Sequence record: PZ445524.1
Origin: a phage
Length of the DNA: 64,000 nt
Strand: one strand, 5' to 3'
Made by a program: the position numbers and the translations under genes. This document shows, one piece after another, positions 2,148 to 57,518 of this stretch. A model generated the notes under the pieces. The model did no database searches. It saw only the letters and a list, made by a program, of their open reading frames with translations, and was not told where the DNA came from. Numbering within the stretch: the stretch's first letter is position 1; each line of letters starts with the position of its first letter.

Positions 2148-3276
<1,129 letters not shown>

Positions 3277-3280
<4 letters not shown>

Positions 3281-3576
3281 TTACATTTATCCTCTTTTAA
3301 CTCTTGACGATAATAACATATCATAGTTTTCTGGTCATGTACATATCGTTTTACATCATTAAGCCAAATACGAAATTCCTGAGAATCTTCAAATGGCATA
3401 CCGACCCAAGCTTTACCATCGATAACTTTAACTTGCCAAGATAGTTTAGCTTCATCATATGACTTTATTTGTACAGGCCAATTAGGATGAACTGTTTCTT
3501 TCTTTACTTCTAGAGGCTTTGTCGAACAACCAACTAGAAGACCAATAGATAATATTACTGCTGATAGTTTAATCAT
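3277..3576 (-). CDS. putative lipoprotein (99 aa)
   Basis: N-terminal signal peptide with lipobox LLVGC. Confidence 0.55.
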
Positions 3577-3926
3577 TTAGAAAGGTCCTGGATGTCTTCT
3601 GCGAACTTGTTGAAGGAGTTGTTGATTTGTTTTTCAACCAATCCTGGCTTATGAGCCACCACATCCGCCTTCTTTGCATCTTTGCGCAGTTTTTCATTTT
3701 CACGCTCAATAGCAGCAATTGCCTCACGATTTTTAGTATTCATCGCATCAATATAATTATACTGAATTCGCAAATTATTTAATGCTAAGGCGTTTTCATT
3801 GGCCGTTTTTGTAATTTCTACAACAGACGTTTCTAATCTTTCAATTTTATTTTTTAAAATTAAAGAAGTTCCGCCTAATGCAATTACAATTAATAGCAAA
3901 CCTGCTGTCGTATTACTTAATTGCAT
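3573..3926 (-). CDS. membrane-anchored coiled-coil protein (117 aa)
   Basis: N-terminal hydrophobic segment then charged heptad-like sequence. Confidence 0.55.
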   Translation of the reverse strand: MQLSNTTAGLLLIVIALGGTSLILKNKIERLETSVVEITKTANENALALNNLRIQYNYIDAMNTKNREAIAAIERENEKLRKDAKKADVVAHKPGLVEKQINNSFNKFAEDIQDLSK

Positions 3927-4420
3927 AAAGTTTTAATAACCTCTATAATATCGTCTTGAGAAAGACCGTTAATTAAAATATGATGTTCAGCTGGAGATTT
4001 AGAAATTTTAAAGCATGCCGCAACATCTTCTGCCATATCTGATGCACTACGATTTGGATTACTAATTCCAAGACGATGCTTTCCAGTCAAAGGATTGACG
4101 ATGATATAGCATTTGCAGCTATTGATATGAACATTAGGTTGAGTCTGATTAATGAATACTTCGCACTCATACTTAGCGAGTTGATTTTCTAAAAAGACTT
4201 TCATCTCTTCAACCGCATCAGGAAGCATATCACGGGCTTGCTCAAGACGACGATTTCGATATTCTTTAATGGTCGTTTTCCGCTTGACTTGCTTAGCTAA
4301 ATCTTTCTTAAGATCAGTGATATATCCAACTCGACGATTTCCTTTGAATACAGAAATCCCATCTGTAGTATCACCGTATGCTTCAACGACCATTTCAGTA
4401 GTAATAAGTTGTAAATCCAT
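3917..4420 (-). CDS. alc: putative Alc (host transcription unfolding/termination protein)
   Basis: 167-168 aa ORF at the position between pseT and rnlA expected from T4 gene order; assignment is positional. Confidence 0.6.
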   Translation of the reverse strand: MDLQLITTEMVVEAYGDTTDGISVFKGNRRVGYITDLKKDLAKQVKRKTTIKEYRNRRLEQARDMLPDAVEEMKVFLENQLAKYECEVFINQTQPNVHINSCKCYIIVNPLTGKHRLGISNPNRSASDMAEDVAACFKISKSPAEHHILINGLSQDDIIEVIKTLCN

Positions 4421-4484: not shown

Positions 4485-6072
<1,588 letters not shown>

Positions 6073-6099
6073 AATAAAATGGGCCTTGCGGCCCACTCC

Positions 6100-8367
6100 T
6101 TAAAAGTATTTTTTAAAACTCATCATAACTTTATCATCAACATCATTATCAATCTGTGCAACAAGGTAAGATGACAGTTCTACTTCTTGTGGCGCGGATT
6201 GAACATTATCAGAATTAAGATATTCACGAATCCAAGGATATGGATGTTTAACCGGAGCATCGGTAATTGGGCATGGAAGACCACACTGTTTCATACGAGA
6301 TACAGTTAAGTAATCAATAAAGCTCCACATGCTATTTGTATTTAATCCAGGAACATCGCCATCTTTAAATAAATGAACTGCCCAATCTTTTTCTTGGCGG
6401 TTAACTTCCATGAAAATATCAACTGCTTCTTGTTCACACTCTTGAGCAATTTTAACCCATTCATCGCCATCAGTACCGGATTGAAGTTGACGAATAATAT
6501 ATTGAGTGCCTTTAAGGTGAAGCTGCTCATCACGTGCAATGAACTTCATAATCTTGGCATTACCTTCCATGATTTCCATGTTCTTATGGAAGTTAAAGGT
6601 ACCGTATGTTCGATTGAGCTCGCTAATTCTCAACCCGTTCTCTTATGAACTGCTGCATGTTACCATGCAGTCCAGACTATATCACAATCCCGGAGGGATT
6701 CTCCCCATTTCGAGTCGCTTGACCCTACGTCCGAAGACTAGTCGTTGAACCTTGCTTTGCAATTGTCGCCGTGCCATCGTTTATATGTTGATGGTGATAA
6801 ATCTTTCTTACCACAATATGGACAATTCAATTGAATTCTATTTGGATTTAATTTACATCTGTCATTATGTTTTAGATAAAATCCAGGACCTTTACCAATG
6901 TGACCACAGAAATCACATGTGATTTCTTTTTGTGCAGGATGGGTCCCGTTCTTAACCATTTCTAATGTTTTTGCTGATGTTCTTTTCTTATGGTCTTCTG
7001 ATAAGAAATGATGTGAACCGTCATTTACCCGTTTTGATTGAGTTTCTGACTGCATTTTACCACCGCAAAATACATGAGTACCTTCTTTTATAGCTGCAAT
7101 ATTGCGTTCTTTAACTTTTGCAATATGCTCAGCTTGTTGAAAATTATGTATACCTAATGCAACTCTATTTAAATTAGATTTACGCTGTATTTCACCATCT
7201 AAAAGATGAAATGTACCATTTTCTATCTTAGATTTAATAGAGGCAATATTTTTAGCTCGTACTTCAGGGATATTAAAAATCTGGATTTCTCTAGATTTTG
7301 CGGCTTTAGAAGCTAATTCAGAAATTTCTTCAGGAGAATATTTCATTCTAAGCTTTATAGCATGACAAGCCTGGTAATCTTTTTGAGCTAAATGTATATC
7401 ATAATGTTCCTGTATAGAAAGGCACATCAAATTATCTAAATCATTATTTTCACGGTTACCGTCTTTATGATGGATTTCGTATGTTCTTCCATCAGAATCT
7501 TTAGGTATAGGTCCGTTAGCATCTATCCAAATTTTTCTATAGTTCAATTGTGCATCCTCTTAAAAGTATAATCATATTTATATTATACTAATTAAAGGTG
7601 CAAGCAAAACCTTGGCTGCTAGTTTTCCATAAAGGACTTTCCAGCAATTAAAGGAGTTTTCGATAAACGTTACCGTTTAAAGGCGCATTTTACGCAAAAG
7701 ATACATAAAAACGAATAGCTTCCAATGCGTTGATTACATGGAGGCAAAGGTAAAGAGATTTCATTAAAGCACGTTTAGCTTCGGCTTCTTGTTTAATAGC
7801 TCGGTTTAAACGAAAGACGGCATCAGGAGATTCTTTAGCTAGTTCTACAAATTCTTTAGCATTTTCCCATTCACGGGTTTTAATCAGAACATCATCATAA
7901 TAACGCCCAATGGATTCAGCACGTTTCATAATAGCTTCATCTAATACAATCTCATCAAATACCTTCGATGGATCAGTATAAAGATTTCGCATGATATGTG
8001 TATATGAACGGCTGTGAATAGTTTCACTAAAAGTCCACGTAGCAACCCATGTATCAAGACTTGGGTCTGAAATTAATGACATAAGTACAGCAGATGGCGC
8101 ACGACCCTGAATGCTATCCAAAAGTGATTGATACTTCAGGTTGTTAGTAAAAATATTTTGCTGATACTGAGGAAGCTTATTAAACTGTGCAGCATCCATC
8201 ATTAAGTTTACTTCTTCCGGGCGCCAGAAAAATGATAATTGCTTTTCGGTCAAATCTTCAAAAACTTTATGGCGTTGAATGTCATAACGCGCAATACCAA
8301 GACCTGAACCAAAAAACATAGGTTCTTTTAAAACATCAACTGGATTTGTATTAAAAACTGTAGACAT
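6100..8367 (-). CDS. nrdB: ribonucleotide reductase small subunit NrdB, interrupted by a group I intron (exon1 7692..8367, exon2 6100..6602)
   Basis: Exon 1 ends FYVSFA + U; joining to 6602 restores CTFNFHKNMEIMEGNAKIM, colinear with the R2 iron-ligand region; intron 3' nt is G. Confidence 0.85.
6603..7691 (-). mobile_element. group I intron in nrdB (about 1089 nt) carrying an HNH homing endonuclease ORF
   Basis: Exon frames only join across this interval; exon 1 ends in U, intron ends in G; boundaries inferred, not folded. Confidence 0.75.
6738..7547 (-). CDS. intron-encoded HNH homing endonuclease, I-TevIII-like, full length (269 aa)
   Basis: HNH motif EIHHKDGNRENNDLDNLMCLSIQEHYDIH; C-terminal Cys clusters CDFCGH and CPYCG; start is TTG with AAGAGGA SD, no in-frame ATG. 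Confidence 0.8.
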   Translation of the reverse strand: MNYRKIWIDANGPIPKDSDGRTYEIHHKDGNRENNDLDNLMCLSIQEHYDIHLAQKDYQACHAIKLRMKYSPEEISELASKAAKSREIQIFNIPEVRAKNIASIKSKIENGTFHLLDGEIQRKSNLNRVALGIHNFQQAEHIAKVKERNIAAIKEGTHVFCGGKMQSETQSKRVNDGSHHFLSEDHKKRTSAKTLEMVKNGTHPAQKEITCDFCGHIGKGPGFYLKHNDRCKLNPNRIQLNCPYCGKKDLSPSTYKRWHGDNCKARFND

Positions 8368-8401
8368 ATTATTCTCGCTTATTATAGGTTTAAATATTTA
8401 A

Positions 8402-9205
8402 TCACATATTATGTATAAGCACTTCAGTCTGAAATGATGCACCTTTCTTTTGCTTCCTATACATGGTTTCAAAATATTCAATTTTGAAATTATTAGAAAG
8501 GGCCCAATCTTTTAAAATATAATTATTAATATCGTCCGATAGATTATTAGTGATAATAAATTTAGACTTTGACCGTTTAATTTTATCTAATAATTCTAAT
8601 TCATCCTTTTCTTCCCATCCTGAATATTTAAATTTAGTAGAAAGATAAGGCGGGTCAATGAATAAATTTTTGTTTTCAAAATCTAAATCTCTGAATGATT
8701 TATTACTAAATGTAAATCGGTGTTGTCTATTTTTAAATTCAGAAAATTTATCCTGTTGAGACTTATTAAAAGAAGTTCTGGAATACTTGGCTCTGTTGGC
8801 GAAAGCCGCGTTATAGTTCCCATTACTAGAAAATCGGATTAATGAACTGAATGAAAATAAATGTAGAACATAAAGATATAGTCCGTTTTTGGTTTTATCG
8901 TATTCTTTTGACAGATTATAAAAAGGTGCTGAATCTTTGTCATTCAAATTGAAGTCTTCAATAATTTTAACTATATCATTAATTGAAGATGATTTCATCT
9001 TTTTATACATGTCTATAAGAGGAGTATTAATATCATTACATATAACATTTCTTTGACAATTCATAGAAAATCCAAGACCGCCACAAAAAGCATCCAAAAC
9101 GGGCTTATCATCAAAGCAGTTTGAAAATTGTCTAATAAATGGCATATACTTATGCTTTGCACCTGGATATGTTATGGCAGGTAGGTCTTTCATATTATTT
9201 CTCAT
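8402..9205 (-). CDS. DNA N6-adenine methyltransferase, Dam family (alpha class)
   Basis: 267 aa; motif I DAFCGGLG near N-terminus, motif IV DPPY near residue 187; LYLYVLH and WEEKDELELL blocks resemble T4 Dam. Confidence 0.75.
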   Translation of the reverse strand: MRNNMKDLPAITYPGAKHKYMPFIRQFSNCFDDKPVLDAFCGGLGFSMNCQRNVICNDINTPLIDMYKKMKSSSINDIVKIIEDFNLNDKDSAPFYNLSKEYDKTKNGLYLYVLHLFSFSSLIRFSSNGNYNAAFANRAKYSRTSFNKSQQDKFSEFKNRQHRFTFSNKSFRDLDFENKNLFIDPPYLSTKFKYSGWEEKDELELLDKIKRSKSKFIITNNLSDDINNYILKDWALSNNFKIEYFETMYRKQKKGASFQTEVLIHNM

Positions 9206-9237
9206 TTGTTAGTGACTCGTCCGTGAGTCAAATTATA

Positions 9238-11502
9238 TCATAATTTACAGGATGAACAATCTTCAGCTTTTGGAGTTTCTATTTCATAATCATCAGTACC
9301 AGAACCATCACGGGTATTATGATAATAGAAATTTTTAATGCCATAATACCATCCGTATAGCATGTCATCAATCATTATTGACATTGGAACCTTTCCCTTT
9401 GGAAAAATCTGCGGGTCATAGTATGTATTCGCTGAAGCTGATTGACATACCCATTTCAGCATAATAGCTACCTGCGTAAGATAAGGTTTATTACCTTTCT
9501 TAGCTAATTTCCATGTATAATCATATAGGTCTATGTTATGCTCAATATTGGGCACGACTTGATTAAAGGAGCCCTCTTTTGATTCTTTAACAGAGACTGG
9601 TCCACGTGGAGGCTCGATGCCGTTTGTACTGTTAGAAACTTGGGAAGATGACTCACATGGCATAAGTGCTGATAATGTGCTATTACGGATGCCAAATAGC
9701 TTAAGGTCTTCCCGCAGCGACGACCAGTCACAAACGTATTTTGGAGCTGCGATTTGGTCAATCTTTTTATTGTACCAGTCGATAGGTAATTCGCCTCGAG
9801 ACCAACGAGTGTCTGAATAATATTCGCAAGGTCCTTTTTCTTTGGCGAGCTTAATGGATGCTTTAATGAGTCCATACTGTAATCTCTCAAATAGTTCATG
9901 TGTTAAATCGTTAGCATCTTCATAAGAAGCAAAGTTACTTGCCAGCCAAGCTGCATAGTTAGTAACACCTACACCAAGGTTACGACGCTTTTTAGCTTTT
10001 TCTGCTTCAGGAACTGGATATCCTTGGTAATCCAACAGATTATCAAGAGCACGAACTTGAACTTCTGCCAATTCATTAATTTTATCTTGGTCTTGCCAGT
10101 CAAAATTATCCAGTACGAAGGCAGAGAGAGTACACAACCCAATTTCAGCATCAGGACTATTCACATCATTTGTTGGAATAGCAATTTCACAGCACAAGTT
10201 ACTCTGACGAATAGGTGCCTTTTCACGAATAAACGGAGTATAGTTATTCGTATTATCAATGAACTGTACATAAATCCTTGCTGTTCCTGAACGTTCAGTC
10301 ATGAGCAATTCAAATAGTTCACGGGCTTTAATACGCTTTTTACGAATATTAGGGTCTTTTTCTGCTGCTTCGTATAATTCACGGAAACGGTCTTGGTCTT
10401 TAAAATAAGAATAATAAAGCTCTCCACCCATTTCATGCGGACTGAACAAAGTAATGTAATCGTTCTTTCCAAAACGTTCCATCATCAAATCATTCAGTTG
10501 AACGCCATAATCCATATGACGAATGCGGTTTTCTTCTACGCCTTTGTTATTTTTCAAAACGAGAAGATTTTCAACTTCCAAATGCCAAATAGGATAATAA
10601 GCAGTAGCAGCGCCGCCACGAATTCCACCCTGTGAGCATGATTTAACTGCAGTCTGAAAATGTTTCCAAAAAGGAATAACACCGGTATGGCGTACTTCAC
10701 CCATGCCAATCTTAGAACCTTCGGCACGAATCATACCAACGTTAATACCAATTCCAGCGCGTTTAGAGATATATTCAACAATTGAAGCGGAAGCCTTATT
10801 GATAGACTTCAGCGAATCACCTGCCTCAATAACAACACATGAACTAAACTGTCGAGTCGGAGTACGACAACCAGCCATAATAGGAGTTGGCAATGAAATC
10901 TGTCGAGTAGATACTGCTTCATAAAAACGAATAACATGTTTTAATCTATCAACAGGTTCATCTTGATGCAATGCCATTCCAATAGTCATAAATGCAAACT
11001 GTGGAGTTTCATAAATTTGACCAGTGGTTTTATCTTTAACTAGATATTTTTCTTTTAATTGCATCGCCCCGGAATAAGTAAATTCCATATCCCGCTCGTG
11101 CTTAATTTTTGATTCTAAAAATGTAATTTCTTCTGCTGAATATTTTGACAATAATTCAGGGTCATATTTACCTTCATTTACACAGTAAGAAATATGGTCA
11201 ATAAATGAACGTGGTTCATACTGCCCATAAACATGCTTACGAAGAGCGAACATTAAACAGCGTGCAGCTACATATTGATAATCAGGTTCTTCAACCGAAA
11301 TAGAATTCGCAGCAGCCTTAATGACAATAGTCTGAATATCATCAGTTGTCATTCCATCACGGAGATAAGATTTAATATTTTCATATAATTCATAAGGATC
11401 TACTGATGTTCCTTCAGCTGCCCAAGATAAAACTTTAATAATTTTTTGTGGGTCAAAGCTCTGAGAAACACCACTACTTTTGATAACATTAATTAATTGC
11501 AT
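9238..11502 (-). CDS. nrdA: ribonucleotide reductase large subunit
   Basis: 754 aa; class Ia RNR alpha with ATP-cone N-terminus and active-site NLCCEI; SD GAGGA. Confidence 0.95.
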   Translation of the reverse strand: MQLINVIKSSGVSQSFDPQKIIKVLSWAAEGTSVDPYELYENIKSYLRDGMTTDDIQTIVIKAAANSISVEEPDYQYVAARCLMFALRKHVYGQYEPRSFIDHISYCVNEGKYDPELLSKYSAEEITFLESKIKHERDMEFTYSGAMQLKEKYLVKDKTTGQIYETPQFAFMTIGMALHQDEPVDRLKHVIRFYEAVSTRQISLPTPIMAGCRTPTRQFSSCVVIEAGDSLKSINKASASIVEYISKRAGIGINVGMIRAEGSKIGMGEVRHTGVIPFWKHFQTAVKSCSQGGIRGGAATAYYPIWHLEVENLLVLKNNKGVEENRIRHMDYGVQLNDLMMERFGKNDYITLFSPHEMGGELYYSYFKDQDRFRELYEAAEKDPNIRKKRIKARELFELLMTERSGTARIYVQFIDNTNNYTPFIREKAPIRQSNLCCEIAIPTNDVNSPDAEIGLCTLSAFVLDNFDWQDQDKINELAEVQVRALDNLLDYQGYPVPEAEKAKKRRNLGVGVTNYAAWLASNFASYEDANDLTHELFERLQYGLIKASIKLAKEKGPCEYYSDTRWSRGELPIDWYNKKIDQIAAPKYVCDWSSLREDLKLFGIRNSTLSALMPCESSSQVSNSTNGIEPPRGPVSVKESKEGSFNQVVPNIEHNIDLYDYTWKLAKKGNKPYLTQVAIMLKWVCQSASANTYYDPQIFPKGKVPMSIMIDDMLYGWYYGIKNFYYHNTRDGSGTDDYEIETPKAEDCSSCKL

Positions 11503-11819
11503 AAGTCCTCAACTTGAAAATCGTCTTTAAACAATCGGTTAACTATATGAGCTATTATATCACCATGACACGGCTTTGGTTTACATGTGCATCCTAGCCT
11601 CATTCCACGTAAAGGCTCTAAATGTGCTTTAGTTATTTCTCCGGATTTAATTCGACGTATAAAATCTTTTTTGAATAATTCAATGGCAGCCGGGAGGCTG
11701 CCAGCATCTTTACCGACGTAATTTCCCCAAAATGTACCGCGGTGAATATTAACATCAAAGTCGGATTTGTATTTATTCACTACCCGGCATAGACGGCCCA
11801 CGCTGGAATAATTCGTCAT
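11493..11819 (-). CDS. hypothetical protein (108 aa)
   Basis: ATG at 11817-11819; contains [11 protein letters not shown]; overlaps nrdA start. Confidence 0.5.
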
Positions 11820-12036
11820 ATTGTTTTTCCGTTAATACAGTAATATCGTAGTAACAGTCAGAAGAAGTTTTAACTGTGGAAATTTTATTATCAAAATACT
11901 CACGAGTCATTTTATGAGTATAGTATTTTTTACCATAAATGGTAATAGGCTGTTCTGGTCCTGGAACTTCTAACTCGCTCGGGTTAGGAAGTGTAAAAAG
12001 AACTACACCAGAAGTATCTTTAAATCGTAAAATCAT
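11773..12036 (-). CDS. hypothetical protein (87 aa)
   Basis: ATG with GAGGA SD immediately downstream of td exon 2. Confidence 0.5.
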
Positions 12037-12055
12037 ATATCCTCACAATTAATAA

Positions 12056-13932
12056 TTACACCGCCATCTTTCCTTTAATAGGAGGGTGTGATACATAGTT
12101 GTTAAGAACGAAATCTTTAGGCCTAAGTTTAAGAACATATTTTAATTGTTCTTTAGTAGAAAGATATCGGAATTTATAAGGTAGACCACTTATTACCAGC
12201 TCACAAAGCTCTTTAGGTTCACGCCTCAAAATTTCTTTACATTGTTCTACGTGATTCATATAGATATGAGTATTACCACCAGAAAATATCAAATCCCCTG
12301 GAATAAGATTACACATCTTAGCTACAATATGAACTAACGTAGCATATGATGCAATATTAAACGGTAGCATTATGTTCAGATAAGGTCGTTAATCTTACCC
12401 CGGAATTATATCCAGCTGCATGTCACCATGCAGAGCAGACTATATCTCCAACTTGTTAAAGCAAGTTGTCTATCGTTTCGAGTCACTTGACCCTACTCCC
12501 CAAAGGGATAGTCGTTAGGCATTTATGTAGAACCAATTCCATTTATCAGATTTTACACGATAAGTAACTAATCCAGACGAAATTTTAAAATGTCTAGCTG
12601 CATCTGCTGCACATTCAAAAATAACCCCATCACATGAAATCTTTTTAATATTACTAGGCTTTTTACCTTTCATCTTTTCTGATATTTTAGATTTAGTTAT
12701 GTCTGAATGCTTATGATTAAAGAATGAATTATTTTCACCTGAACGATTTCTGCATTTACTACAAGTATAAGCAGAAGTTTGTATGCGAACACCGCACTTA
12801 CAAAACTTATGGGTTTCTGGATTCCAACGCCCATTTTTACTTCCGGGTTTACTGTAAAGAGCTTTCCGACCATCAGGTCCAAGTTTAAGCATCTTAGCTT
12901 TAACAGTTTTAGAACGTTTCTTAATAATTTCTTCTTTTAATGGATGCGTAGAACATGTATCACCAAACGTTGCATCAGCAATATTGTATCCATTAATTTT
13001 AGAATTAAGCTCTTTAATCCAAAAATTTTCTCGTTCAATAATCAAATCTTTCTCATATGGAATTTCTTCCAAAATAGAACATTCAAACACATTACCGTGT
13101 TTGTTAAAAGACCTCTGAAGTTTTATAGAAGAATGGCATCCTTTTTCTAAATCTTTAAAATGCCTCTTCCATCTCTTTTCAAAATCTTTAGCACTTCCTA
13201 CATATACTTTATTGTTTAAAGTATTTTTAATCTGATAAATTCCGCTTTTCATAAATACCTCTTTGAATATAGAAGTATTTATTAAAGGGCAGTCCTACAA
13301 TTTAGCACGGGATTGTCTACTAGAGAGTTTCCCCGTTTAGATAGATTACAAGTATAAGTCACCTTATACTCAGGCCTCAATTAACCCAAGAAAACATCTA
13401 CCGAACGTTGATACCACTGCAAATCCAAATAGCCATTACGAACATTAAATTGATAAAACATATGACAAGGCGGTAATGCCATCTGCTTGAGTTCAGCTGG
13501 ATTCCATGCTGAAACAATTTGACGCCTATCATTTGGCAGTTTTTTAATACGATCAATAACTTCTATAATTTGGTCTACACCACCAAAATCACGCCACTGT
13601 TTTCCATAAATTGGACCAAGTTCACCGCTATGGTATCCTAAATCTTTTGCTTGATTTTCGTAATTTTCATCCCAAACTGTTTTGCCTTGGATTAACGAAT
13701 CATGCTGAATTAATCGTAAATCATTGACATTTGTGCTTCCTGATAAAAACCATATTAACTCGGCAATGCAAGCTTTCCAGGCGAGCTTTTTAGTTGTTAC
13801 TGCAGGAAAACCTTTGGTTAAATCCCAACGCAATTTAGTACCGAACAAAGCAATTGTTCCTGTGCCTGTTCGGTCATCGGTTTCATAACCATTTTCAAAA
13901 ATGTCTTTAATTAAATCTTGGTATTGTTTCAT
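12056..13932 (-). CDS. td: thymidylate synthase, interrupted by a group I intron (exon1 13384..13932, exon2 12056..12367)
   Basis: Exon 1 ends YQRSVDVFLG, exon 2 begins LPFNIASY; spliced product 286 aa. Confidence 0.9.
12368..13383 (-). mobile_element. group I intron in td (1016 nt) carrying I-TevI
   Basis: Exon 1 ends in U (GGU), intron ends AUG with terminal G before CUA CCG; length equals the known T4 td intron. Confidence 0.85.
12515..13252 (-). CDS. intron-encoded GIY-YIG homing endonuclease I-TevI
   Basis: 245 aa; N-terminal GIYQIKNTLNNKVYVGSAKDFEKRWKRH, zinc finger CKCGVRIQTSAYTCSKC, C-terminal DNA-binding region. Confidence 0.9.
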   Translation of the reverse strand: MKSGIYQIKNTLNNKVYVGSAKDFEKRWKRHFKDLEKGCHSSIKLQRSFNKHGNVFECSILEEIPYEKDLIIERENFWIKELNSKINGYNIADATFGDTCSTHPLKEEIIKKRSKTVKAKMLKLGPDGRKALYSKPGSKNGRWNPETHKFCKCGVRIQTSAYTCSKCRNRSGENNSFFNHKHSDITKSKISEKMKGKKPSNIKKISCDGVIFECAADAARHFKISSGLVTYRVKSDKWNWFYINA

Positions 13933-55898: not shown

Positions 55899-55906
55899 TA
55901 TTTATA
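55899..55906 (-). promoter_or_regulatory. late promoter TATAAATA for soc
   Basis: Reverse complement TATAAATA about 30 nt upstream of the soc ATG. Confidence 0.7.
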
Positions 55907-56738
55907 AACCATTTTCAAATCTCTTTATCATGTTTATATAATTTTCGTCAGGATAACCTAGGCTAACTGCTAGCTTTCTAAAATTGACATATTTAGGTTT
56001 GTTGTTATTAATCCATAATTCTCTAAGCTCTTTTTCATAATTCCATTTAAGTTGATTTCTGCGTGCAATTTTGCTTAAAGTTTTTCCTTTAGCTTTTAAA
56101 GCTTTTTCAGATGACTGTTTTAATTTTTGAATATTTAAAACTTCTTCTATAGATAAATTATTTTCCTTTGAATATCTTATGCAAAAATCTTTTACTATGG
56201 CTATTAGGCAATTTTTGTGAGTACCTAAAATTTCTGGATTATTTTCTTCAACTAAAATTCCCCAATACCTTCGATAGCGAGGCATATCCCTTGAAATCCA
56301 GTCATTATACCAAAAATCAAAGTTGGAATACATGAAAGATTTTCTTTTACGAAGAGTATCTTGGTTTATCCATTGCTCACGTTTATCAGCCCATAACTTA
56401 ATAGTAAAGTCTTTCTCTAAGTCAGAAAGCTTCTTAAATTGTGAGCTATTTACTGAGGTCATTCTCTGGAATGCATTCAGCAATCCAAATCTTCCAGTTG
56501 AACATAAGAGATAGTGAACATATATGTGTTGATATATTGGGAGATATACTCTATTCCAAGGATATATTTTAAAATCACTATACTCAGGAAATGCACATTT
56601 AGGAAGTATATGATGGGCTTCTGTTTTAGATTTAATGTGAGTGTTTAACTTATACTTATCTATAATTTTTAAATACTCATCTAAAAGTTCCCATTGCGGG
56701 AACTTTTCTTTAAGAGCAGATTTGAAATTAATATCCAT
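55902..56738 (-). CDS. HNH homing-endonuclease-like protein (Mob-type) adjacent to gene 56
   Basis: 278 aa from ATG 56736-56738; motif EAHHILPKCAFPEY; basic C-terminal region; start overlaps gene 56 3' end by 11 nt. Confidence 0.65.
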   Translation of the reverse strand: MDINFKSALKEKFPQWELLDEYLKIIDKYKLNTHIKSKTEAHHILPKCAFPEYSDFKIYPWNRVYLPIYQHIYVHYLLCSTGRFGLLNAFQRMTSVNSSQFKKLSDLEKDFTIKLWADKREQWINQDTLRKRKSFMYSNFDFWYNDWISRDMPRYRRYWGILVEENNPEILGTHKNCLIAIVKDFCIRYSKENNLSIEEVLNIQKLKQSSEKALKAKGKTLSKIARRNQLKWNYEKELRELWINNNKPKYVNFRKLAVSLGYPDENYINMIKRFENGL

Positions 56739-57246
56739 TATCTTGACGTTCAAAATTATGTTTGTTCTTCAAATAATAAAGTTTAAAGATTTCTTCAGCC
56801 GACATTCCAAGAGCAATAAATTTATTCATGAAAAAGTGAAATTGGTCAATCAGTTCAAATTTAATTTCAAGCTGATCTTCGGGAGATAAATCTTGAATTT
56901 TCTTGGATTGCATTTCAGAATAACGTTTCTTCCAAGGTTTCCATACAGCAGAAGCTTCTTTTTCACCATTACTCATACCACCAAGAGAAGTATATAGCTC
57001 GCGAGTTTCGTCTGCGATATAATCGTCTTGGTTTCGCAGCCAAGCAAGAACTTCTCCTGCAGTTTCAAGTGAATCGGGATGACGATTTGTTTCTGGTTTA
57101 TCATTAGCCAAACGAATCTGTAAATGCCGCTGCATATCAAGCATAACCTGCAATGGGTCTTTTTCATCACCGAGAATATCCCAGTATTCATTTTGAGCTT
57201 TATCAACACCTTCGATCAAATGAGCACATTCATTAAAGTGAGCCAT
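56728..57246 (-). CDS. 56: dCTPase/dUTPase gp56 (MazG-like)
   Basis: 172 aa from MAHFNECAHL; middle-promoter-like element upstream. Confidence 0.85.
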   Translation of the reverse strand: MAHFNECAHLIEGVDKAQNEYWDILGDEKDPLQVMLDMQRHLQIRLANDKPETNRHPDSLETAGEVLAWLRNQDDYIADETRELYTSLGGMSNGEKEASAVWKPWKKRYSEMQSKKIQDLSPEDQLEIKFELIDQFHFFMNKFIALGMSAEEIFKLYYLKNKHNFERQDNGY

Positions 57247-57280
57247 TATTTTTCCTTTCAATTCATGGGTTAGTAGATTA

Positions 57281-57305
57281 ATTATACAATAAATATATAA
57301 AGCAA
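57281..57305 (-). promoter_or_regulatory. MotA-dependent middle promoter for gene 56
   Basis: - strand TTGCTTTA (MotA box) then 11 nt then TATAAT, about 40 nt upstream of the gene 56 ATG. Confidence 0.6.
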
Positions 57306-57317
57306 TAAGGAGGACAT

Positions 57318-57518
57318 ATGGTACAAAAATTAATGGCACTTGTTGATGCCATAAAAGGTAATAAGAAACGTATAGCTTTTACTATTTCTGCTATGGTAGG
57401 AATTTTACTCTGGAACTTTATTTTATCACCTGTTGCAATTGCACATGGTATTAATATTCCAGTAGTTACTCTTGATACATTCGTAGATTTAGCATTTGCT
57501 TTAGTTGGGTTAATTTAA
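57318..57518 (+). CDS. small putative membrane protein (66 aa) on the + strand between genes 56 and 61
   Basis: SD AAGGAGGA then ATG at 57318; two hydrophobic segments; stop overlaps gene 61 stop convergently (TTAA). Confidence 0.45.
   Translation: MVQKLMALVDAIKGNKKRIAFTISAMVGILLWNFILSPVAIAHGINIPVVTLDTFVDLAFALVGLI

Follow-up and report, generated by a model that had tools for sequence, protein, structure and literature searches.

Sequence record PZ445524.1 holds 64,000 nucleotides of phage DNA (hereafter the window, that is, the whole stretch of DNA that was analyzed); the DNA is that of a T4-like phage and is most similar overall to Tequatroviruses (95-97%). Between the nrdA and nrdB genes, on the minus strand, the window contains an open reading frame (ORF) that a sequence-only reading had singled out as a divergent Dam-family adenine methyltransferase and that is referred to below as the methylase. 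Judging from sequence comparison and a structure model, this ORF very probably encodes an orphan, S-adenosylmethionine (AdoMet)-dependent N6-adenine DNA methyltransferase of the D12/alpha class, with a predicted activity, carried as a promoterless cassette between nrdA and nrdB. The features of the locus, in the order of increasing coordinates, are the following.

6738-7547, minus strand: HNH (I-TevIII-type) ORF in the nrdB intron, 269 amino acids, PF13392 (HNH_3) match with E 6e-13, about 0.85 kb from the methylase
7690-8367, minus strand: nrdB exon 1, the downstream neighbor, with its start 34 nt past the methylase stop
8388-9209, minus strand: inserted cassette of about 822 bp, delimited by aligning its junctions with the empty site of T2 and the mobE-containing site of RB10
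8402-9205, minus strand: methylase ORF as first called, 267 amino acids, stop codon TGA at 8402-8404
8402-9193, minus strand: methylase coding sequence from the conserved start ATG 9193, 263 amino acids, based on the PF02086 match, start conservation, the ratio of nonsynonymous to synonymous substitution rates (dN/dS) and the structure model
9213-9230, minus strand: stem-loop TGACTC-ACGGAC-GAGTCA, just 3' of the nrdA stop, with a 6-bp stem and a 6-nt loop
9232-9240, minus strand: TGATATAAT, an extended -10-like element that overlaps the nrdA stop TGA (9238-9240) and is common to the T2 empty site
9238-11502, minus strand: nrdA, the upstream neighbor, 754 amino acids

Start codon, cassette boundaries and transcription

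The 267-amino-acid minus-strand ORF is present as first described, with motif I (DAFCGGLG, residues 38-45 in the 267-residue numbering that is used throughout) followed by a hairpin region (residues 118-138) and then by DPPY (residues 184-187), that is, in the order typical of the alpha class. The first ATG of this ORF, at 9205, is not conserved among the carriers of the gene: phage NR1 has ACG in its place, PhiKpNIH-6 lacks it, and the protein clusters P0003 and P0004 begin with MKDL; comparison of these sequences therefore indicates that the start is most likely the second ATG, at 9193, and that the first call adds four non-conserved N-terminal codons. Seven nucleotides upstream of ATG 9193 there is a GAG, a weak Shine-Dalgarno sequence, which is GGAG in PhiKpNIH-6. 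The impression of an unusual initiation region thus came from a start called four codons too early, together with a hairpin that is part of the flanking nrdA region.

The cassette consists of the methylase ORF alone, with about 4-16 nt on the 5' side and 14 nt on the 3' side, and is so tight that there is no room for a promoter of its own. Its product contains a methyltransferase as the sole domain, and Pfam and PHROG searches indicate that no self-spreading, site-specific nuclease is encoded. The cassette is a promoterless single-gene insert placed exactly in the nrdA-nrdB spacer. The GC content of the methylase gene is 28.5%, compared with 36-38% in nrdA and nrdB, and is similar to the GC content of the window's homing-endonuclease genes.

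The stem-loop between the nrdA stop and the methylase exists and has the 6-bp stem ascribed to it, but it cannot be assigned to the methylase gene, since it is kept at the empty site of T2. With an energy of -7.5 kcal/mol and a z-score of -1.7, this hairpin is unremarkable by itself. It is found, however, in the 51-bp empty spacer of T2 and in all carriers of the methylase, in three or more genera and irrespective of the presence of the methylase, and PhiKpNIH-6 shows a compensatory double change in the stem (GGCTC...GAGCC); in mobE-containing phages, the hairpin is lost. It belongs to the conserved 3' flank of nrdA, outside the cassette, and may mark the 3' end of an RNA, stabilize the transcript or serve as a site of processing. 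A terminator scan of positions 8200-9600 called none, and there is no U-run after the hairpin.

A promoter scan of the same region yielded 14 promoter-like sites against 8.8 expected. The best site inside the cassette (8943-8915) was discarded as a chance match since it is not conserved in the allele of phages BGP and CF-SP2. The TGATATAAT element at the 3' end of nrdA is a candidate middle promoter of nrdB and, if active, would drive the methylase as well; no convincing MotA box was found upstream of it. The mobE gene that occupies the nrdA-nrdB site in other phages lacks a promoter of its own and shares a transcript with nrdA (Wilson and Edgell 2009, PMC2790892). By analogy, the methylase is most likely co-transcribed with nrdA too.

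Family, fold and selection

The methylase matches the full length of the PF02086 profile (D12-class N6-adenine DNA methyltransferases), with residues 13-249 aligned to positions 1-251 of 253 and a score of 84.4 bits against a cut-off of 22 (E 1.4e-23); there is also a match to PHROG 56, 'DNA methyltransferase' (E 2e-36). Among proteins of solved structure, the closest by sequence is T4 Dam (E 3.5e-37, residues 8-256), followed by DpnM (1e-5) and EcoDam (1e-4). An AlphaFold2 model built from an alignment of 80 homologues reached a predicted local distance difference test score (pLDDT) of 92.2 and a predicted template modeling score (pTM) of 0.90; a subfamily alignment of five sequences gave a pLDDT of only 42 and was discarded. 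When the accepted model was compared with solved structures using Foldseek, T4 Dam again ranked first (E 1e-21, template modeling (TM) score 0.84-0.89), ahead of EcoDam (0.72-0.80) and then DpnM. The DAFCGGLG and DPPY motifs are intact, and G42, D184, P186 and Y187 show little or no variation among the 80 homologues. The earlier assignment to a Dam-like, alpha-class family of adenine methyltransferases that has diverged from T4 Dam is thus borne out by 34% identity, the PF02086 match and a Dam-type fold.

Database searches place this protein in a small and isolated lineage. When 1.84 billion cluster representatives were searched exhaustively with HMMER, a single isolated cluster at 50% identity was retrieved (E 2e-134), and the next match beyond this cluster is 35% identical (E 2e-28); a word-indexed search of 5.8 billion proteins yielded four clusters at 90% identity. 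Peptide patterns of the subfamily matched 48 times in IMG/VR, but no match was confirmed. The nearest outgroup is the Dam of Alcaligenes phage Afa-NA1, which is 41% identical to the methylase and has the same insertion after the recognition hairpin; Afa-NA1 Dam and T4 Dam are 35% identical to each other. In Afa-NA1, a 78-kb phage (PV550095.1), the dam-like gene lies at 2510-3304 of the examined locus and adjoins topoisomerase genes. Sequence comparison indicates that the methylase belongs to a parallel, rare and separate line of phage Dam-like enzymes rather than being a diverged copy of T4 dam.

The gene is under strong purifying selection. The dN/dS ratio is 0.027 in the comparison with NR1 (dS 0.17), 0.08-0.18 in comparisons with the other alleles and 0.05-0.18 among the more distant alleles (dS 0.3 to >1), and all copies, nine or more, are intact. 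The divergence is concentrated in the 5' two-thirds of the gene, which contain the DNA-recognition region (dN 0.15-0.24, against 0.04 in the 3' third). The idea that the ORF is an inactive relic or a mis-called frame, which could draw on a score below the cut-off of the NCBIfam dam model and on the very low GC content, is hardly credible: a full-length Pfam match, intact catalytic and AdoMet motifs, a high-confidence model and dN/dS values of 0.03-0.18 across alleles, with dS up to >1 and no disrupted copy, effectively refute it.

No description or functional characterization of an nrdA-nrdB methylase was found in the literature searched. Nevertheless, several carrier records label the gene 'DNA adenine methylase' or 'putative methylase', and what is present here is a rare accessory gene, already annotated in public genomes, for an enzyme of an established class in an established hot spot; the type of enzyme is commonplace, its location unusual.

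Carriers, cassette exchange and the 56-61 locus

A comparison of 698 phage records that match the nrdA and nrdB flanks confirms that the methylase occupies a homing-endonuclease hot spot. The methylase insert is present in eight of these records, whereas most of the others have an empty spacer of about 51 bp and a sizeable minority contain mobE or another homing-endonuclease gene; mobE lies between nrdA and nrdB in T4, as the sequence-only reading had stated, and likewise in RB10. In all nine GenBank carriers, from at least three genera, and in two metagenomic contigs, the methylase is located between nrdA and nrdB. The closest copies come from the Tequatroviruses NR1 (vB_Eco_NR1), 236Ecol005PP, T4_ev240, ECO07P2 and EP02SG, with 96-97% nucleotide and 97-99% protein identity; the phage of the window differs from all carrier records, the best match being 96.8% identical at the nucleotide level. 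More distant carriers, with a protein identity of 77-80%, are Tequatrovirus BGP (methylase 81% identical at the nucleotide level), the Salmonella Gelderlandvirus CF-SP2 (79%), fDHCT2 (80%) and the Klebsiella Marfavirus PhiKpNIH-6 (77% amino acid identity, identified by protein search). The sequence-only reading had named as refuting evidence near-identity of the protein to T4 Dam combined with a dam at this same place in other T-even genomes, or else the lack of a methyltransferase fold. One part of this applies, since NR1, ECO07P2, T4_ev240, 236Ecol005PP, EP02SG and BGP do carry the same gene at the same locus, but the identity to T4 Dam is only 34% and the methyltransferase fold was recovered with TM scores of 0.84-0.89.

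The methylase has diverged between genera about as far as its flanks. Between CF-SP2 and the window, nucleotide identity is 78.7% for the methylase, 81.7% for nrdA and 83.1% for nrdB; for PhiKpNIH-6, the respective values are 74.7% for the methylase and 71.4% for nrdA. This parallel divergence suggests a long residence of the gene at the nrdA-nrdB site. The exception is BGP, in which nrdA is 98.4% identical to that of the window and 82% identical to that of CF-SP2, whereas the methylase is 91.4% identical to that of CF-SP2 at the nucleotide level. In the BGP record (OZ035849.1), this Gelderlandvirus-like allele lies at 3501-4304 of the examined nrd locus. The presence of such an allele within Tequatrovirus flanks is direct evidence for lateral exchange of the cassette and supports the original suspicion of horizontal acquisition.

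The neighboring intron with an intact I-TevIII-type endonuclease was also identified correctly, as the ORF at 6738-7547 encoding a 269-amino-acid HNH protein. A scan of positions 5500-13500 at the Rfam gathering thresholds gave no group I intron match, and the nrdB intron is deduced only from the split nrdB and the HNH ORF. The latter additionally gives a marginal FlgM match in Pfam, which is probably spurious. A second intron endonuclease gene lies farther upstream.

12515-13252, minus strand: I-TevI ORF in the td intron, 245 amino acids, with GIY-YIG, zinc finger and DNA-binding domains

The proximity of an endonuclease raises the possibility that the methylase and a nuclease form a selfish pair in which the methylase has the protective part, conferring immunity against the co-resident endonuclease or forming a module akin to restriction-modification. 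The methylase does reside in a homing-endonuclease hot spot and shares the low GC content of homing-endonuclease genes, and in both the window and BGP, which have the same arrangement of methylase and intron HNH gene, an intact I-TevIII-type HNH gene lies 0.85 kb away. However, NR1 and CF-SP2 have the methylase without the intron; in these two phages as well as in fDHCT2, PhiKpNIH-6 and the metagenomic contigs, nrdB is uninterrupted and no nuclease gene is adjacent, while the intron endonuclease occurs in many phages without the methylase. No adjacent restriction endonuclease gene and no conserved nuclease partner was detected, nrdA and nrdB being the neighbors of the methylase in every carrier. 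Homing endonucleases of the I-TevIII kind are not known to be sensitive to methylation. All considered, such a pairing is very unlikely.

The sequence-only reading had further noted the absence of dam from the interval between genes 56 and 61, where T4 carries it, and had suggested that the gene might have been relocated. Both the position of dam in T4 and its absence from this interval of the window are confirmed, the latter by the lack of a minus-strand ORF of dam size, by tblastn and by alignment with T4.

55902-56753, minus strand: 283-amino-acid HNH-type homing endonuclease between soc and gene 56
57247-57514, no strand assigned: gap between gene 56 (start at 57246) and gene 61 (end at 57515), without dam
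57318-57518, plus strand: 66-amino-acid hydrophobic ORF in the gap, on the strand opposite to the early genes

According to the alignments with T4 and BGP, the gap in the window equals the T4 interval minus a clean block of about 0.9 kb (880-890 bp) that bears dam, and a tblastn search of the 64-kb window with T4 Dam detected a single locus, the methylase ORF (E 6e-38), with the next match at E 2.3. The same contiguous, dam-less gap is present in 347 of 519 Tequatrovirus-type records, including T6, RB14 and RB18. The canonical dam is itself an accessory cassette, and its absence from the window is unremarkable, being the majority state. As for other genes of this region, the 66-amino-acid ORF has a strong AAGGAGG Shine-Dalgarno sequence, matches PHROG 2024 (E 4e-31) and is conserved in BGP and in T4, where it is unannotated in AF158101. 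The 283-amino-acid HNH gene (PHROG 655, E 2e-33; no Pfam match) occupies the site of the GIY-YIG gene segF of T4 and has about 26 nt in common with the 3' end of gene 56.

Eight of the nine carriers have a single Dam-like locus, an apparent second match in PhiKpNIH-6 being explained by the record boundary, which cuts this one gene in two. The exception is again BGP, which has the methylase and, at its 56-61 locus, the canonical dam (4964-5743 of the examined stretch) together with an extra ORF of 186 amino acids. Given that BGP carries both genes, mutual exclusivity of the methylase and canonical dam was dropped as a firm claim.

A T4 dam orthologue would be expected to lie at 56-61 and to be highly identical to T4 or T2 Dam, and the methylase shows neither property. 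It could still be a T4-type dam that changed its location from 56-61 to nrdA-nrdB during T-even evolution and diverged afterwards, as might be read from T4 Dam being the closest solved structure and from the lack of dam at 56-61 in most carriers. Yet the dam-less state of 56-61 is common in phages without the methylase, and BGP has both genes. Moreover, the identity to T4 Dam is 34%, whereas the flanking genes are over 95% identical among these phages, and the Dam of the Alcaligenes phage is closer to the methylase (41%, with the common insertion) while itself being 35% identical to T4 Dam. Finally, the presence of the methylase at nrdA-nrdB in Gelderlandvirus and Marfavirus, with flank-like divergence, suggests long residence at this site. 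Relocation is thus highly improbable: T4 Dam (34-35%) is no closer to the methylase than Dam-like proteins of unrelated phages, with Afa-NA1 Dam at 41%.

Target specificity, predicted role and relation to known systems

In the complexes of EcoDam and T4 Dam, GATC is read by a beta-hairpin; in EcoDam, Y119 is the intercalating residue, the G of the fourth base pair is recognized by R124, L122 and P134 touch the third base pair, and N120, K9 and Y138 add further contacts; discrimination at the fourth base pair is lost in the R124A mutant (PMC4417163). Most of the corresponding positions are recognizable in the methylase. Its F119 aligns with EcoDam Y119 and T4 F111, so that the intercalating aromatic residue is kept; S120 is as in T4 Dam and L122 as in EcoDam; R124 aligns with EcoDam R124 and T4 R116; and Phe135, the equivalent of T4 Phe127, is conserved. 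Arg138 is located at or near the position of T4 R130, the alignment there being ambiguous owing to an insertion. Position 124 is Arg in 73 of the 80 relatives and Lys solely in the allele shared by BGP, CF-SP2 and fDHCT2, which combines Lys124 with Ser134 in a rewritten hairpin, SMLKFSKDDKYIAS; cluster P0003 retains Arg124 and has Ser134. Position 134 is more variable across the 80 relatives, of which 35 have Pro, 18 Ser and 13 Ala. The pattern of residues suggests that the methylase is probably a GATC-type enzyme, possibly with relaxed discrimination, that acts on the hydroxymethylcytosine (hmC)-containing DNA of the phage.

As a separate observation on the composition of the window, GATC is by far its most depleted palindromic tetramer. 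There are 66 sites, and a second-order Markov model gives an observed-to-expected ratio of 0.31; TCGA follows with 0.66. There are no GATC sites inside the methylase gene.

Several facts weigh against the interpretation of the methylase as an active, Dam-like, GATC-type enzyme that takes the place of canonical dam. In the NCBIfam model TIGR00571 'dam', it scores 92.3 bits, below the cut-off of 114.85, with T4 Dam reaching 239.5. Ala134 replaces the Pro found in T4 Dam (P126) and in EcoDam (P134) and is followed by a six-residue insertion; because of these two changes, GATC specificity is not to be assumed. The coexistence of the methylase and canonical dam in BGP argues against simple redundancy. 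The negative association between the two genes is suggestive at best and statistically weak, because about two-thirds of Tequatroviruses lack dam anyway and because the six window-type copies (five in GenBank and that of the window, 96-97% identical to one another) are closely related. From the recognition residues, strict specificity for GATC appears to be evenly balanced between true and false.

A possible, although on the whole doubtful, alternative is that the methylase has a relaxed or altered specificity and is a natural counterpart of the dam-h mutants of T4, methylating GATC along with near-cognate sites, or another motif, and providing broader protection against restriction. The hypermethylating dam-h mutation of T4 is said to be a change of Pro126 to Ser that relaxes specificity, and dam-c is reportedly a change of Phe127 to Val, Phe127 being needed for hmC-DNA. 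The position of T4 Pro126 is Ala in the allele of the window and Ser both in the allele of BGP and CF-SP2 and in P0003. Furthermore, the nearly invariant Arg124, whose replacement by Ala in EcoDam has the effect described above, is Lys in the allele of BGP, CF-SP2 and fDHCT2, where the hairpin is rewritten; the recognition-bearing 5' two-thirds are the divergent portion of the gene; and the retention of canonical dam in BGP fits non-redundancy. All the same, residues other than Pro are common at position 134 among T4-Dam-like relatives, the effect of a single residue is not transferable across 34% identity, and the allele of the window has kept all but one of the five other reading residues. 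Under this alternative, alleles with Arg and those with Lys at position 124 may have different targets. A more elaborate version, which we consider unlikely, is that of a dam-h-like methylase with at least two recognition-loop alleles of different targets, Arg124/Ala134 and Lys124/Ser134, that are swapped between T4-like genera as a cassette, hitch-hiking on the break repair induced by neighboring homing endonucleases. If this version were true, the cassette would be a portable, specificity-polymorphic anti-restriction module and not a simple substitute for Dam.

Returning to the preferred interpretation, a Dam-like orphan methyltransferase of probable GATC type, we infer the activity of the methylase, its target sequence, the timing of its expression and its biological role as follows. 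The gene would be transcribed early or in the middle period within an nrdA-(methylase)-nrdB message, perhaps with additional transcription from the middle promoter that serves nrdB and lies at the nrdA 3' end, and would be translated from ATG 9193. The enzyme would then methylate adenines of the replicating hydroxymethylcytosine phage DNA at GATC or at a close, possibly relaxed, site. Where canonical dam is lacking, as in this phage, it would, by analogy, supply the non-essential anti-restriction and self-marking role of T4 Dam. The cassette itself could spread between phages and genera via homologous recombination in the conserved nrd flanks, and double-strand-break repair set off by neighboring homing endonucleases may assist this spread.

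These findings do not overturn the current understanding but suggest that adenine methylation in T-even phages may be reached by two routes that are unrelated by descent, namely, dam at 56-61 and the rare nrdA-nrdB lineage. The classic dam is present in roughly one-third of Tequatrovirus records, and neither methylase belongs to the core. For isolates considered for phage therapy, the presence of the methylase predicts carriage of N6-methyladenine and hence resistance to, or triggering of, particular restriction systems of the host. For enzymology, the alleles offer natural variants at the specificity positions corresponding to T4 Pro126 (dam-h) and EcoDam Arg124. With regard to genome evolution, the cassette is an instance of non-nuclease cargo in a homing-endonuclease insertion site that is traded across genera.

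Among the known systems, the closest is T4 Dam (M.EcoT4Dam; PDB 1Q0S, 1YF3, 1YFJ, 1YFL), another orphan enzyme of a T-even-type phage with hmC DNA. The two proteins share the D12/alpha fold (TM 0.84-0.89), a similar size, the order of motifs from FxGxG through the recognition hairpin to DPPY, and the equivalents of the intercalating Phe, the Ser, Arg116 and Phe127, along with an Arg at or near the position of Arg130. In contrast, the identity is 34%, the genes occupy different sites (nrdA-nrdB and 56-61, respectively), the equivalent of Pro126 is Ala, and the methylase has a six-residue insertion after the hairpin and a shorter C-terminal region, and falls short of the TIGR00571 cut-off. The GATC-specific D12 enzymes E. 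coli Dam and DpnM (M1.DpnII) resemble the methylase in the fold and the catalytic motifs, and equivalents of EcoDam Y119, L122 and R124 are present, although the identity in structural alignments is only 16-18%; unlike EcoDam, the methylase has Ala at the P134 position and appears to read the first base pair in the T4 manner, with a hairpin Arg, rather than with K9 and Y138. As a genetic element, the cassette is most similar to those of the mobE type, with which it shares the insertion site, the tight, promoterless single-gene organization, the probable reliance on nrdA transcription, the low GC content and the patchy distribution (Wilson and Edgell 2009, PMC2790892). It differs from them in that it encodes a methylase and not a nuclease, and thus has no homing mechanism of its own, and in that it keeps the flank hairpin and the promoter region at the 3' end of nrdA that mobE displaces.

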